From Candidatus Electronema aureum (GTDB taxonomy: Bacteria; Desulfobacterota; Desulfobulbia; Desulfobulbales; Desulfobulbaceae), in NCBI GenBank assembly GCA_004284765.1, contig NQJD01000015.1, forward strand, positions 1 to 32,000: a stretch of 32,000 nucleotides of DNA. Reading direction: 5' to 3'. The position numbers and the translations under genes are program-made. The notes beneath the pieces were generated by a model that ran no database searches, was not told where the DNA came from, and saw only the letters and a program-made list of their open reading frames with translations. Below are positions 15,395 through 18,246 of the stretch, in pieces (positions within the stretch are counted from its first letter, which is position 1; every line of letters starts with the position of its first letter).

Positions 15395-15423
15395 TTGACC
15401 TACGCCGTGCCGCTGGTATTATA
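15395..15423 (+). promoter_or_regulatory. Candidate sigma70 promoter for the tRNA (TTGACC-N16/17-TATTAT/ATTATA)
   Basis: TTGACC at 15395-15400 and TATTATA at 15417-15423, about 17 nt upstream of the mature tRNA 5' end. Confidence 0.4.
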
Positions 15424-15439
15424 AAGAGTTTAGCCTTGC

Positions 15440-15516
15440 GGGCCTATAGCTCAGTTGGTTAGAGCCACCGGCTCATAACCGGTCTGTCCCTGGTTCGAGT
15501 CCAGGTAGGCCCACCA
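15440..15516 (+). tRNA. tRNA with anticodon CAU; features favour tRNA-Ile2 (lysidine type) over elongator tRNA-Met
   Basis: 77-nt cloverleaf with acceptor GGGCCUA/UAGGCCC, a D-loop AGCUCAGUUGGUUAGAGC, an anticodon arm ACCGG-CUCAUAA-CCGGU, a T-arm GGUUCGAGUCC and an encoded CCA. G1-C72 is paired, so it is not an initiator. C4 and C5 in the acceptor stem and the anticodon stem resemble known tRNA-Ile2 sequences. Confidence 0.93.
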
Positions 15517-15666
15517 GCACGGTCAGGCGGCAGGGAAGATGTTCCTGCTTTGACGAATCACTCCACGCGCAGCAGTTTTTTGAATTCAAGCACGTCCGGC
15601 TCCCGAATTCCTGTTGGCAGTAGCAATCTGTTCTTAGACAGTAGCGCAAACACCATACGTTCTCAA

Positions 15667-15701
15667 GAGGCGCATCCGTCATGGATTGCGCCTCTTTTTT
15701 T
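15667..15701 (+). terminator. Intrinsic terminator-like hairpin (8-bp GC-rich stem, 12-nt loop, U7 tract)
   Basis: GAGGCGCA (15667-15674) pairs with TGCGCCTC (15687-15694), followed by TTTTTTT (15695-15701). Confidence 0.6.
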
Positions 15702-15706
15702 GTCCT

Positions 15707-16525
15707 GTGACGAACGTTCAAAAACTTCTTGACATCCTTGAAGAAATTGCACCTGCTGCGTTAGCTACCAGCTGGGACAATGTGGGACTGCTGGTCGGCA
15801 GTCCGCGTAGTCGAGTCAGCTCTGTGCTGCTGGCCCTTGACCCGACAGTCTCTTTGATCGCCCAAGCGCAGGAACGTGCTGCTGAACTCATTATCACCCA
15901 TCATCCGGCTCTCTTTCAGCCGCTGAAATGCCTGCGCACTGATCAGCCAATTGGCAGCTTTCTCGATGCCGCCTTACGGGCTGGAATCAACGTGATCGGT
16001 TGTCACACCAATTTAGATGCCGCGCTCGGTGGAGTCAGCGATGCATTAGCGCAGGCTCTTGGATTGACCAATACCATCCCCTTGATTGCGGACAAAAAAC
16101 AGCCAACGTGCGGTCTCGGTAGGATTGGCTGGTTGCCTACACCGCTACCACCAGAGGCTTTTTTGACCCAACTTCAAGCGGCGATTTCATTACCTTGGCT
16201 ACTGGAAGCCGGGCCGCGATCGATAGCAGTTGCCAAAGTAGCAGTTTGTGGCGGCTCTTGCTCTGATCTGGCAGAAGCGGCCTTGGCAGCAGGAGCAGAT
16301 GTTTTTATCACCGCTGAAATCAAACATCATGTTGCCCGCTGGGCAGAAGAGGCCGGGCTGTGGCTTTTAGACGGTGGCCATTTTGCCACGGAAAATCCGG
16401 CCATGCACATCTTGCAGCAGCAACTGACGGAGCGCATCCGACTGGCGGATTTGAACGTGCAGATTCATTGTGCCCAGCAGGAATCCCCCTTGAAGCTGGT
16501 GGCTCAGGAATTTTGCAAAGAATAA
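15707..16525 (+). CDS. NIF3-family dinuclear metal-centre protein (YbgI/YqfO-like)
   Basis: LLDILEEIAPAALATSWDNVGLLVG and ITHHPALF are NIF3 hallmarks. I prefer the GTG at 15707 because homologues start about 5 aa before this motif. The ORF-track TTG at 15686 lies inside the terminator hairpin. Confidence 0.85.
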   Translation: MTNVQKLLDILEEIAPAALATSWDNVGLLVGSPRSRVSSVLLALDPTVSLIAQAQERAAELIITHHPALFQPLKCLRTDQPIGSFLDAALRAGINVIGCHTNLDAALGGVSDALAQALGLTNTIPLIADKKQPTCGLGRIGWLPTPLPPEAFLTQLQAAISLPWLLEAGPRSIAVAKVAVCGGSCSDLAEAALAAGADVFITAEIKHHVARWAEEAGLWLLDGGHFATENPAMHILQQQLTERIRLADLNVQIHCAQQESPLKLVAQEFCKE

Positions 16526-16567
16526 AAAAAGATCAATGTCCATTAATAGAAGAGAGAGGAGAACATT

Positions 16568-17371
16568 TTGAACGAAGAACTCAGCAAGCTCGTCGCGTTA
16601 CAGGAGCTTGACACAGAGCTGGCCGGATTTGATCGGGAAGCGGAGCGAATCCGACAGGAGCTGGTAGATCGGGAAAAGGCGGTTAAAGACCGGGCAATTT
16701 TGGCCGAGCAATGCCGGGAAAAGGCAGCAGAGCTGGAGCAGAGCCGTCACACGATCAAGGCAGCGGGCGAAGAGGCTGCTGATCGGATCAAGGAGCGGCA
16801 AATCAAGATGATGCAGGTGCAGACCAGCCGTGAGCACCAAGCATTGCTTAAAGAAATTGAGGATGCGAAAAAGCAAATCCGTGACACCGAAGAGCAGATG
16901 CTCCACGTCATGGAGCAGGCCGAGGCGGAGCTAAACCGGGCGACAGAATTGGAAAACCTGTACAAAGGTGAAACCAAGCTGCTGACCGAAGCGGCTAAAA
17001 AGACCGAGGAGGCCATCCGCAAGATTGAGGCTCGTCGCGCCGAGGTATTGAACAGTCGCAGCCAGTTGGCTAAAGAAATCCCGGACACGCAGATCAAGCG
17101 GTATGAAAAACTGCTCAGTAAACGTAAGGGCTTGGCCGTAGTCAAAATTTTGGGTGGGGTCTGTCAAGGCTGCTTCATGACCGTGCCGCCGCAGCAGTTC
17201 AATCAGGTGCGCAAGGGCAACGACATCAGCGCTTGTCCGGCCTGTCAGCGTATTCTTTATTACAAGCCCGACCCCAATCATCCTGAGGTGATGCAACCTA
17301 TTTTGCGACCTCAGTTAGAGGATTTGTACGAGTCCGATGGCGAAGATGACGAAGATGAGTTGATCGAATGA
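16568..17371 (+). CDS. Coiled-coil protein with a C4 zinc ribbon (COG1579 type)
   Basis: TTG start with a GAGGAG Shine-Dalgarno 6 nt upstream. About 190 aa of coiled coil, then CQGC...x20...CPAC, then an acidic tail. This family is commonly found next to NIF3 genes. Confidence 0.85.
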   Translation: MNEELSKLVALQELDTELAGFDREAERIRQELVDREKAVKDRAILAEQCREKAAELEQSRHTIKAAGEEAADRIKERQIKMMQVQTSREHQALLKEIEDAKKQIRDTEEQMLHVMEQAEAELNRATELENLYKGETKLLTEAAKKTEEAIRKIEARRAEVLNSRSQLAKEIPDTQIKRYEKLLSKRKGLAVVKILGGVCQGCFMTVPPQQFNQVRKGNDISACPACQRILYYKPDPNHPEVMQPILRPQLEDLYESDGEDDEDELIE

Positions 17372-17790
17372 GCCAACCTGTAGTTGCTTGGAGGCTGTTT
17401 ACGGACGGAGCCTCTCGGGGAAATCCGGGCAAGGCAGGAGCGGGCGCAGTGCTGCTCGACAGCGAAGGCCGCGAGCTGGCGGCCCGCTCTCTGTATCTCG
17501 GTGAATGTACCAACAATGCGGCAGAATACCGCGCTTTGCTTCTTGGCCTGCACGCAGCCCTTGAATTGGGCTGCATCCAGCTGGAAATTTATTTAGATTC
17601 CGAGCTGATTGTTCGCCAAATTCAAGGTCGGTACAAGGTTAAACATGAAACTTTGAAGCCACTCTTTGATGAAGTAAAAATTTTGCTCGCGCAGATAGAG
17701 AGCTGGTCAATCGCCCATGTGCCGAGGGAGCAAAACAAGCGGGCTGATCAGCTGGCAAACCGGGGAGTTGACGAGGGGAGCAAGCAATAG
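17368..17790 (+). CDS. rnhA: Ribonuclease HI (type 1 RNase H)
   Basis: 140 aa. The DEDD catalytic residues sit in the expected contexts (FTDGASRGNPG, NNAAEYRALL, LDSELIV, KRADQLAN). The start overlaps the previous stop by 4 nt (ATGA). Confidence 0.9.
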   Translation: MSQPVVAWRLFTDGASRGNPGKAGAGAVLLDSEGRELAARSLYLGECTNNAAEYRALLLGLHAALELGCIQLEIYLDSELIVRQIQGRYKVKHETLKPLFDEVKILLAQIESWSIAHVPREQNKRADQLANRGVDEGSKQ

Positions 17791-17810
17791 CAGAGAAACA
17801 CAGCAGTTTT

Positions 17811-18180
17811 GGGGCGAACGCATGATCGCTCCGGTCTTAGTACCGGGGAGGAAAGTCCGAACACCGCAGAGCACGGTGGTTCTTAACAGGAACGCCGGGA
17901 AACCGGGGGAAAGTGCCACAGAAAATACACCGCCGATGGGACAGGTAACTGTTCACAGGTAAGGTTGAAATGGCGAGGTAAGAGCTTCACCGCTTTCATG
18001 GTGACATGAAAGGCAAGGCAAACCCCACCGGGTGCAAGACCAAATAGGGAAACGTTTGAGGGCTGCTCGCCTGAAGTTTCCGGGTAGGTTGCACGAGGTG
18101 CTGGGCAACCGGCATCCAAGTCAAATGATCATGGCCTGCGGCAGTAATGCAGGAACAGAATTCGGCTTATAGTCCGCCCC
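17811..18180 (+). ncRNA. rnpB: RNase P RNA, bacterial type A
   Basis: 370 nt. P1 pairs GGGGCG... with ...CGCCCC. Universally conserved blocks are present: GGAGGAAAGUCCG, ACCGCCGAUGG, CAGGUAAGG, GGUAAGAGC, CAAAUAGGG, CGGGUAGGUUGC and ACAGAAUUCGGCUUAUAG. Confidence 0.94.
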
Positions 18181-18220
18181 AATTTTTTTATCAATCAAAA
18201 GCGTTGTAGATCGAAGTAGG

Positions 18221-18246
18221 GCGAACCAATCGGTTCGCTTTTTTTG
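18221..18246 (+). terminator. Intrinsic terminator after rnpB
   Basis: GCGAACC-AATC-GGTTCGC hairpin followed by TTTTTTTG. Confidence 0.65.

Follow-up and report, generated by a model that had tools for sequence, protein, structure and literature searches.

A conserved gene string running from tRNA(CAU) to the RNase P RNA gene in Candidatus Electronema aureum

We have found that, by its sequence context, the RNase P RNA gene (rnpB) of Candidatus Electronema aureum lies at the end of a same-strand gene string that begins with a tRNA gene. The string lies in the window, by which we mean the whole stretch of 32,000 nucleotides that was analysed (assembly GCA_004284765.1, contig NQJD01000015.1, positions 1 to 32,000, forward strand). 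On the + strand it reads promoter, tRNA(CAU), spacer, hairpin with a U7 tract, NIF3, COG1579 zinc-ribbon, RNase HI, rnpB, terminator and ispDF. Because this layout recurs across two phyla, rnpB is probably cut out of a longer transcript. As an explanation of the whole, we lean modestly towards co-transcription of rnpB with the upstream genes, by read-through from the tRNA promoter, followed by processing. The locus is best explained as this genome's version of a housekeeping gene string of ancient origin.

RNase P RNA is commonly regarded as the product of a gene that stands alone and is driven by its own promoter, the E. coli gene being one such case. The gene neighbourhood of rnpB receives no attention in searchable reviews, and a 2024 review treats synteny for rnpA only. 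If rnpB is the tail of a tRNA-led operon in many bacteria, its 5' end must come from a processing step and its level is bound to the tRNA promoter and a conserved attenuator. The essential and poorly understood NIF3 and COG1579 proteins would then gain a firm, testable expression partner. The contrast between classes of loci predicts promoters where rnpB stands free and none where it abuts the upstream gene; the importance of the arrangement would be lower if embedded promoters prove the rule, as data from Borrelia hint.

Anatomy of the locus

The string is headed, as the first-pass annotation had proposed, by a tRNA gene with anticodon CAU and an encoded CCA, placed at 15440-15516 (+) by tRNA search. 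It is not an initiator tRNA; G1-C72 is paired, and the genome holds three CAU tRNAs, of which a separate gene (C1_47151) is 94% identical to E. coli metY. Overall identity does not discriminate between E. coli ileX (77%) and metT (79%) as the closer relative. The pairs C4-G69 and C5-G68 are present in the window tRNA and in ileX, are absent from E. coli metT and metU, and are retained in 49 of 69 orthologous tRNAs; the other elongator-type CAU tRNA of the genome has G4-C69 and A5-U68. Both pairs are reported (Ikeuchi et al. 2005) to be TilS determinants in E. coli. The gene probably encodes tRNA-Ile2 (lysidine) rather than elongator tRNA-Met.

A sigma-70-type promoter with a TG-extended -10 (TTGACC-16-TATTAT; 15395-15422, +; 10/12 match) stands 18 nt before the tRNA. 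It is the only + strand sigma-70-like site of at least 9/12 within 15000-18600, which bears out the earlier statement that it is the nearest good promoter, in a consensus scan that is blind to other sigma factors and to weak promoters masked by coding constraint. At 8/12 only weak matches were recovered, at 17653-17681 inside rnhA and at 15614-15642 in the spacer, and both are absent in genus relatives when the sequences are compared by eye. In a crude sigma-70 scan of the phylum, 44 of 63 loci had a strong promoter upstream of the orthologous tRNA, at a distance of 8-30 nt; no other promoter of the string is both strong and conserved.

The 148-nt spacer between tRNA and hairpin (15517-15664, +) contains a small hairpin at 15522-15554 (-15.6 kcal/mol, z -3.5). 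Searches of the spacer found no ORF, no Rfam family, no sigma-54 motif and no convincing promoter. Across the phylum loci, the scan that recovers the pre-tRNA promoters, and so serves as its own control, finds no excess of sigma-70 promoters in the tRNA-to-NIF3 spacers, where matches occur at the background rate. The spacer is followed by a terminator- or attenuator-like hairpin with a U7 tract (15665-15701, +; stem 15665-15696; MFE -21 kcal/mol, z -4.85), which ends 6 nt (15702-15706) before the GTG start of NIF3. It has the GC-rich stem, the U tract and the stability above shuffled sequences of an intrinsic terminator, and it is absent from the terminator scan only because its loop exceeds the limit of that scan. 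The element resembles an efficient terminator, an observation that counts against a read-through model.

The core of this hairpin (A tract, GG-Y-R-C-A ... U-G-Y-R-C-C, U tract) recurs between the tRNA and the NIF3 or zinc-ribbon gene in 50 of 69 loci. It is rare in the genome, where 7 of 251 predicted hairpin/T5 sites carry it, and no consensus structure beyond the hairpin was found across the spacers. The hairpin lies 2-70 nt from the ORF start in most loci and 14-374 nt from the tRNA end; in most loci its end is a mere 2-30 nt from the ORF, and no room is left for a promoter behind it. Loci that lack the hairpin have 11-66 nt between tRNA and ORF, and a Shine-Dalgarno sequence is present.

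The three protein genes are tightly packed on one strand, each assigned by its Pfam family (NIF3, zinc-ribbon, RNase H). The NIF3/DUF34 gene (15707-16525, +; PF01784, E 6e-71) has no Shine-Dalgarno sequence and is U-rich upstream; its start at 15707 is consistent with homologues that align from residue 1-3. After a spacing of 42 nt comes the COG1579/DUF164 coiled-coil zinc-ribbon gene (16568-17371, +; PF02591, Zn_ribbon_9; PF24481, CT398 coiled coil), of the FlgZ/HP0958, CT398 and Rv2229c family, in which the cysteines of the CxxC...CxxC motif (C199, C202, C223 and C226) are invariant among 33 homologues. It overlaps the RNase HI gene (rnhA; 17368-17790, +; PF13456, RVT_3, E 4e-27; PF00075, RNase_H, E 3e-13) by 4 nt (ATGA). 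The latter is of the short archaeal/actinobacterial type and ends with TAG at 17788-17790. Both spacings, like the position of the hairpin before NIF3, agree with what had been read initially from the sequence, as do all other sequence features described at that stage. Upstream of the string lies an M48/TPR peptidase gene on the minus strand.

The gene for RNase P RNA occupies 17810-18185 (+) and is full length and untruncated (RF00010, model positions 1-367, 291 bits against a gathering score of 100). It gives the single RF00010 match in the genome, and by this match it is a bacterial type A RNase P RNA gene; as the only copy, it is presumably the functional gene rather than a fragment. The junction with the rnhA stop codon (17791-17809, +) is U-rich and measures 19-20 nt, much as first described. 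A sigma-70 consensus search of the junction found no -10/-35 pair, a terminator search found no terminator there, and the last 100 nt before rnpB (17710-17809) hold no promoter-like site of at least 8/12. Among members of the genus, only the last ~9 nt of the junction (ACAAGTTT-like) are kept, regardless of the upstream context. Behind rnpB, the clean terminator noticed earlier was recovered at 18218-18252 (+; MFE -16 kcal/mol, z -3.7). It ends ~15 nt before the ATG (18268) of ispDF, a fused IspD/IspF gene (18268-19452, +; PF01128, PF02542) that is the next same-strand gene and follows rnpB in most of 24 loci of the window's order. A TTGACG at 17768-17773 is an unlikely -35 element: it has no -10 partner, as the first reading had also remarked, and it encodes a conserved Val/Ile-Asp of the RNase H C-terminus.

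Conservation of the rnpB neighbourhood and its promoter-like sites

Synteny across genomes, proposed beforehand as a check on the linkage, held strongly. In 78 of 93 Desulfobacterota loci, the gene immediately preceding rnpB, in the same orientation, encodes a zinc-ribbon protein or an RNase H. Beyond the order to which the window belongs, families are mostly represented in this sample by a single genome; here and in all locus counts, genomes within one phylum are not independent. The median gap is 25 nt, 41 gaps are of 30 nt or less, and in 13 loci the upstream stop codon falls inside rnpB, in the 5' strand of P1. When sampling was centred on the zinc-ribbon gene, rnpB was adjacent in 68 of 75 loci, and in a second phylum, taken to be Nitrospirota, a zinc-ribbon or RNase H gene precedes rnpB in 21 of 27. 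The arrangement is missing from 15 of the 93 phylum loci, and rnpB has been relocated, not lost, in two of eight congeners. One relocated copy stands 27 nt after a strong terminator, so rnpB can be expressed without the operon. Toxin-antitoxin cassettes have been inserted between rnhA and rnpB within the genus, and they are co-oriented with rnpB and end 12-19 nt before it.

The tRNA of the string comes immediately after rpoD in 20 of 67 related loci, and the cluster resembles an extended dnaG-rpoD operon. The first-pass annotation had taken the linkage to rnpB to suggest a role in RNA processing for NIF3, COG1579 and RNase HI. That suggestion is weak, because the neighbourhood is accounted for just as well by linkage to a housekeeping "macromolecular synthesis" cluster.

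Promoter-like sites in front of rnpB were counted as sigma-70-like sites with a -10 ending 4-25 nt upstream of the gene. They occur in 5 of 45 loci where rnpB abuts the upstream gene (2.8 expected), in 9 of 28 with a gap above 40 nt (1.7 expected) and in 8 of 13 where rnpB lies in other contexts (1.2 expected); abutting and remaining loci differ (Fisher p = 0.0025). When only the -10 was scored in both phyla, the counts were 7/57, 7/39 and 11/19, respectively. By this measure the abutting loci are above background (7 seen against 1.5 expected). In the small second-phylum sample the class difference falls short of significance. In a minority of abutting loci, a good promoter does lie within the coding sequence upstream, such as TTGACA-17-TAATAT or TTGCAA-18-TATAAT.

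Expression of rnpB and competing explanations

Most likely, rnpB is transcribed as the last part of the NIF3/zinc-ribbon/rnhA transcript. An endonuclease cut within the 19-nt U-rich junction would then set its 5' end, and its own terminator would set and protect the 3' end. The operon mRNA probably results when some of the transcription from the strong tRNA promoter passes the hairpin/U7 element, so that one promoter would yield much tRNA and little mRNA; a stable ribozyme would build up despite a low rate of synthesis. The hairpin before NIF3, which is conserved throughout the phylum, is probably a leaky terminator. Since no promoter would fit between hairpin and ORF, we infer that its read-through is partial or regulated, and one long transcript requires that this read-through be substantial, given a strong, conserved terminator hairpin between tRNA and NIF3. 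The long transcript or read-through cascade proposed at the outset is thus supported in part: synteny, the sole strong promoter at the tRNA and the lack of a terminator between rnhA and rnpB speak for it, and the strength of the hairpin and a transcription start site (TSS) mapped in Borrelia speak against it.

That start site bears most directly on a possible, more tentative reading, in which rnpB has its own weak or coding-constrained promoter buried in the last rnhA codons. Transcription would then start with the mature 5' end or a few nt upstream of it, and adjacency would reflect tight packing only. The 5' end of B. burgdorferi rnpB at 750817 is listed as a TSS, 27 nt past the zinc-ribbon ORF end at 750789 (PMC10319736), so that an embedded promoter is compatible with a short gap. 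Such promoters are good in several abutting loci, where -10-like hexamers are also somewhat enriched, as noted above, and relocated congener copies are expressed from new contexts, one of them with TTGACG-18-ATTAAT ~10 nt upstream. In the window, the TTGACG at 17768 is a possible -35, but no hexamer with A2 and T6 follows it at 15-19 nt; its TTGAC is accounted for by the Val/Ile-Asp codons, and the interval from it to rnpB has a spread of 13 nt in the genus. Among genus contexts, conservation before rnpB is confined to the last ~9 nt, and abutting loci have far fewer promoter-like sites than the other classes.

It is doubtful that the tRNA is a separate unit ending at the hairpin, with the NIF3 operon, with or without rnpB, transcribed from an unrecognised promoter in the 148-nt spacer and the hairpin acting as a leader attenuator or the 3' end of a small RNA. 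This arrangement is compatible with co-transcription of rnpB and rnhA, and it would suit a hairpin that follows the ORF start more closely than the tRNA end and whose core is conserved far beyond this genome's terminators. At the family level, TTGAAY followed 16-17 nt on by AAAAAT, GACAAT or AACAAT recurs 60-80 nt before the hairpin. Against it, the hexamer after TTGAAT in the window and genus (CGAATT or TGGAAT) lacks the essential A2 and the spacing varies, and no such promoter fits where tRNA and hairpin are 14-19 nt apart or tRNA and ORF 11-30 nt; the background match rate and the lack of a sigma-54 motif, an Rfam match and further consensus structure point the same way.

It is improbable that the gene order is simply inherited, with rnpB and the protein genes uncoupled today in both transcription and function. 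The relocation of rnpB without loss in congeners, the 15 phylum loci that lack the arrangement and Proteobacteria such as E. coli, which keep only rpoD ... ileX, would accord with this view, but it leaves unexplained the gaps of 0-30 nt and the stop codons inside P1 across two phyla, the scarcity of promoters in abutting loci in particular and the co-orientation of the junction cassettes. Highly improbable, finally, is a self-referential circuit in which the ribozyme would be made only from the promoter of its own pre-tRNA substrate, past the conserved hairpin, with read-through or downstream RNA stability set by tRNA trailer processing or by an operon protein (e.g. the zinc-ribbon), tying ribozyme supply to tRNA transcription or RNase P demand.

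Comparison with known systems

Part of the layout was drawn by Pereira et al. 2011 (PMC3372290, Fig. 3B), who show dnaG, rpoD, tRNA-Met(CAU), NIF3, a flgZ homologue and rnhA in one orientation across Deltaproteobacteria, Nitrospirae, Deferribacteres, Spirochaetes and other groups. Their figure places the RNase P RNA gene behind the flgZ homologue of B. burgdorferi; in that DUF164/FlgZ (HP0958) neighbourhood, rnpB figures only as a single "unique" gene in one species, and the paper is silent on transcription, gap lengths, the hairpin and the breadth of the rnpB link. The window differs in having no rpoD or dnaG upstream, where the opposite-strand M48 peptidase gene stands instead; rpoD homologues lie on other contigs. 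In mycobacteria, the same triad forms one operon, Rv2231c-Rv2230c-Rv2229c-Rv2228c (cobC, NIF3, COG1579, RNase HI/CobC), as the first-pass annotation had stated for Rv2230c to Rv2228c, with RNase HI fused to a CobC phosphatase and rnpB not mentioned (PMC7466739).

The E. coli rpsU-dnaG-rpoD operon resembles the 20 related loci noted above in that a CAU tRNA, ileX (tRNA-Ile CAU), follows rpoD. It differs in that the opposite-strand mug lies between rpoD and ileX, and no NIF3, COG1579, rnhA or rnpB gene stands behind ileX. The rnpB gene of E. coli is located elsewhere and has its own promoter. The tRNA genes and the protein gene of E. coli thrU-tyrU-glyT-thrT-tufB are transcribed from a common promoter and then parted by processing, as would be the case here, but that operon is not known to have a 3' ribozyme gene or a conserved terminator hairpin between tRNA and mRNA; its co-transcription has been shown experimentally, whereas that of the string in the window is proposed.

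In Borrelia burgdorferi, rnpB (SR0613) follows the zinc-ribbon gene BB_0713 in the same orientation at a distance of 27 nt, with dnaG-rpoD farther upstream. The transcriptome has been mapped by Adams et al. 2017 and Petroni et al. 2023 (PMC10319736); by TAP-dependent 5' RNA-seq, the dominant rnpB 5' end is classed as a TSS (Supplementary Data 2), and processed ends lie just upstream of it. This primary start fits an embedded promoter rather than pure processing, in a genome whose AT-richness makes promoters inside genes easy to come by.

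The rnpB gene string and its conservation

Type A RNase P RNA (rnpB) was recovered by Rfam at full length (17810-18185, + strand; 291 bits, model positions 1-367) within a string of + strand genes that begins with a tRNA, placed at 15440-15513 by Rfam and at 15440-15516, with anticodon CAU, by ARAGORN. Pfam matches identified the NIF3/DUF34 gene (15707-16525), a zinc-ribbon gene carrying Zn_ribbon_9 and a CT398 coiled coil (16568-17371), the RNase H gene rnhA (RVT_3 and RNase_H; 17368-17790) and, after rnpB, an ispDF ORF with IspD and IspF (ATG at 18268, + strand). NIF3 and the zinc-ribbon gene are separated by 42 nt, the end of the zinc-ribbon gene and the start of rnhA share ATGA, and only 19 nt lie between the rnhA stop codon (17788-17790) and the Rfam start of rnpB. 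A hairpin (15665-15696; -21 kcal/mol, z -4.85) with a U7 tract ending at 15701 precedes the GTG start of NIF3 (15707) by 6 nt (15702-15706), and about 15 nt separate the terminator after rnpB (18218-18252; -16 kcal/mol, z -3.7) from the ispDF start codon. All features listed in the first-pass annotation, which had proposed a long transcript or read-through cascade with rnpB released by processing, were located again at the positions given there using Rfam, ARAGORN, Pfam and reading of the sequence.

Of 24 additional genomes in the order, 22 have the arrangement tRNA(CAU), NIF3, zinc-ribbon, (RNase H), rnpB, ispDF on one strand; some families lack RNase H, and the zinc-ribbon gene then abuts rnpB. 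Adding to the order set a single genome per family for 68 other families of the phylum gave a sample in which a zinc-ribbon or RNase H gene lies immediately 5' of rnpB in 78/93 loci. Between the upstream gene and rnpB the median gap is 25 nt; 41 loci have gaps of no more than 30 nt, and the gap is negative in 13. The 5' strand of P1 opens with the TGA or TAA stop codon of the upstream gene in several families. When the sample was centered on the zinc-ribbon gene, rnpB was found downstream on the same strand in 68/75 evaluable loci. A cross-phylum protein-pattern search gave a first alignment that was too diverse and a second pattern that matched almost only the same phylum; the second phylum, Nitrospirota by title, was entered via a locus titled Nitrospiria, and there the string is present in 21/27 evaluable loci. 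The first-pass annotation had stated that a lack of conserved synteny of rnpB in related genomes would count against its reading, and the counts for both phyla clearly show such synteny. In Spirochaetes, the rnpB layout is documented for Borrelia burgdorferi (PMC3372290, PMC10319736).

No rnpB occurs in the downstream DNA examined at seven zinc-ribbon loci, namely L127 (Thermodesulfatator autotrophicus), L126, L131, L148, L170, L179 and L182. In addition to rnpB, a protein-only RNase P has been reported in the genus Thermodesulfatator (PMC10941002).

Promoters and rearrangements at rnpB

Promoters were sought throughout with a single rule (TTGACA and TATAAT, 16-18 nt apart, at least 8/12 matches, -10 with A2 and T6). 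As a control, 44/63 loci had a promoter-like site, often at 10-12/12 matches, whose -10 ended 8-30 nt upstream of the tRNA, as against 2-7 loci in each bin farther 5'. The rule therefore detects real promoters of the phylum and shows the tRNA promoter to be conserved. In the window, this promoter (TTGACC-16-TATTAT) is the only good + strand sigma-70-like site between 15000 and 18600; lowering the threshold added only weak sites, none of which is kept in the genus when compared by eye. Matches in the spacers between the tRNA and NIF3 or the zinc-ribbon gene were low-scoring and at background rate across the phylum loci.

Sites ending 4-25 nt upstream of rnpB were counted by context. Where rnpB abuts the upstream ORF (gap of 40 nt or less), 5/45 loci had a site (2.8 expected; not significant), whereas sites were found in 9/28 loci with a gap over 40 nt (1.7 expected; p = 2e-5) and in 8/13 loci with rnpB in another context (1.2 expected; p = 6e-6). 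Abutting loci differ from all other rnpB loci (Fisher p = 0.0025), with the proviso that loci drawn from related genomes are not independent. A -10-only test across both phyla gave 7/57, 7/39 and 11/19 for the abutting, gap over 40 nt and other-context classes, respectively; in the second phylum alone, an underpowered sample, the contrast was not significant. Clear rnpB promoters of its own are seen in genomes G012 (TTGACA, CATAAT), G023 (TTTACA-17-TACTAT) and G006 (TTGACG-18-ATTAAT). Free-standing rnpB thus has a visible promoter, whereas abutting rnpB, as in the window, mostly does not, as judged by a crude scan that is blind to other sigma factors and in regions where coding constraint may hide weak promoters.

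Eight congeners provide natural experiments. In three of them rnhA abuts rnpB, with gaps of 9, 9 and 19 nt. Three others carry a co-oriented insert of 500-640 nt exactly between rnhA and rnpB (L033 of G003, 2892-3391; L031 of G001, 4295-4988; L037 of G008, 4394-4981). Two of the inserts are co-oriented toxin-antitoxin pairs, in one case BrnT together with a weak match to CopG antitoxins (E 0.0013) and in the other PIN together with a weak match to Phd/YefM (E 0.00085), both antitoxin matches falling short of the Pfam cut-off. The third insert holds a 195-aa ORF that matches no Pfam family. All three inserts end 12-19 nt from rnpB. Retention of orientation and of a tight junction fits a dependence of rnpB on upstream transcription. 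In the remaining two congeners rnpB lies outside the operon: in L034 (G004) it follows a strong terminator by 27 nt, behind the gene for a 416-aa signal-peptide protein, and in L035 (G006) it sits behind a MazE/PIN pair, with the G006 promoter about 10 nt upstream. These relocated copies show that any such dependence is replaceable. The only sequence common to all genus contexts is the approximately 9 nt 5' of rnpB (ACAAGTTT), so no promoter travels with the gene.

The tRNA, the spacer and the hairpin before NIF3

The window tRNA (15440-15516) is labelled tRNA-Met by the annotation tools. Three CAU tRNAs occur in the genome. One, with 94% identity to E. coli metY, is the initiator. Of the other two, the window tRNA shares C4-G69 and C5-G68 with E. 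coli ileX, and the third carries G4-C69 and A5-U68; we take the C4-G69/C5-G68 rule to be a mark of tRNA-Ile2. The two C-G pairs are retained in 49/69 orthologous tRNAs, and rpoD precedes the orthologous tRNA in 20/67 related loci, which recalls E. coli, where ileX is located behind rpsU-dnaG-rpoD. Overall similarity does not decide the identity, and it is on these pairs, their retention and the neighborhood that we consider the molecule probably a tRNA-Ile2 (lysidine). The Met annotation of the conserved tRNA may be wrong throughout, including in Pereira 2011 (PMC3372290).

The spacer between tRNA and hairpin (15517-15664) contains a small hairpin (15522-15554; -15.6 kcal/mol) and no ORF; in spacers of the family, a GCAG-U-rich-TTGAAY block recurs, as does a CTGTT...AACAG mini-hairpin. 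The spacer could represent tRNA 3' trailer RNA or a leader. Rfam searches for a known RNA family in the spacer gave nothing above noise at E up to 10, and RNAalifold returned the terminator hairpin alone as consensus structure. A sigma-54 promoter was rejected, TGG-N9-TGC being present in 1/69 spacers and the TGGCA-like motif of the genus being variably spaced. A single locus (L041 of G012) has a near-consensus sigma-54 motif, TGGCAT-N5-CTGC, between hairpin and NIF3 start, some 161 nt past the tRNA, which is curious because COG1579/FlgZ stabilizes RpoN in Helicobacter.

A hairpin with U tract separates the tRNA from the first ORF in 50/69 loci. Its core comprises an A tract, GG-Y-R-C-A, a loop, U-G-Y-R-C-C and the U tract, often with GTGCAC on both arms (for example, AAAAGGTGCA...TGCACCTTTTTT and AAGTGCACC...GGTGCACTTTTTTT), and matched changes occur on both arms (GGUGCA/UGCACC, GGUACA/UGUACC, GGCGCA/UGCGCC); a pair-by-pair covariation table was left out of the evidence due to unreliable anchoring. 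Just 7/251 predicted hairpin/T5 sites in the window's genome have this core. Judged by its sequence, the hairpin is not an ordinary terminator, and it may be an element recognized by a protein or RNase rather than a plain terminator. The core is kept across some 40 families of the phylum (window 15665-15701; for example, loci L048, L057, L076, L093 and L112).

The hairpin usually ends 2-30 nt 5' of the ORF start, too close for a promoter, and loci lacking it have 11-66 nt from tRNA to ORF and a clear Shine-Dalgarno sequence. It follows that transcripts of the protein genes either traverse the hairpin or come directly from the tRNA. We read the hairpin as a conserved leaky terminator that would set the ratio of tRNA to mRNA; regulated read-through is possible. 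On read-through RNA it may serve as a 5' stabilizer, with the U-rich tract a ribosome landing site for the GTG start, which lacks a Shine-Dalgarno sequence. A leader peptide in the hairpin (ATG at 15681, a 9-codon ORF ending in GTGA on the NIF3 start) was discarded, as neither frame nor ATG is kept in congeners by eye.

Proposed read-through, protein function and known systems

In the read-through cascade that we favor, transcription would start at the strong tRNA promoter, the tRNA would be transcribed first, the hairpin before NIF3 would attenuate, and the NIF3/zinc-ribbon/rnhA message would follow. A cut in the U-rich junction would then free rnpB, protected by P1 and its own terminator, and transcription would possibly continue to ispDF past a second terminator of like design. 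The ispDF start, about 15 nt after the rnpB terminator, repeats the terminator-then-start-codon design of NIF3. Given this design, and since rnpB and ispDF stay adjacent throughout the order and in some families beyond it, the proposed read-through chain may extend to ispDF. A leader-trailer stem around rnpB, like those that RNase III cleaves at rRNA, was dismissed, since duplexes of the 30-nt leader and 45-nt trailer are no better than shuffles (z = 0.0 in the window; mean z = -0.4 over 47 abutting loci).

The first-pass annotation assigned NIF3, COG1579 and RNase HI to RNA processing from linkage only, and the same linkage joins primase, sigma-70, tRNA, RNase HI and ribozyme, a general "macromolecular synthesis" neighborhood. 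COG1579 proteins have been linked in the literature to RpoN stability and to secretion chaperones, and for NIF3 a DUF34 study, which nowhere mentions rnpB, puts forward a role as a metal chaperone. Both the triad of proteins and its association with rpoD and a CAU tRNA are already known, and rnpB behind the zinc-ribbon gene has been drawn once, for Borrelia, without comment (PMC3372290). Our literature search for rnpB co-transcription, or for rnpB beside NIF3, COG1579 or rnhA, returned nothing beyond Pereira 2011, and found no paper treating rnpB as an operon member. New here are the rnpB gap lengths measured in two phyla, the promoter contrast between abutting and free rnpB genes, the conservation of the tRNA promoter and the phylum-wide conservation of the hairpin.

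On sequence grounds, we lean slightly toward co-transcription of rnpB with its upstream genes in the window, and hold the whole chain from tRNA promoter to rnpB with somewhat less confidence. This caution reflects Borrelia, where rnpB begins 27 nt behind the zinc-ribbon ORF and its 5' end, at 750817, is classed as a transcription start site with processed ends just upstream (PMC10319736), a classification that speaks against simple generalization of the read-through cascade.
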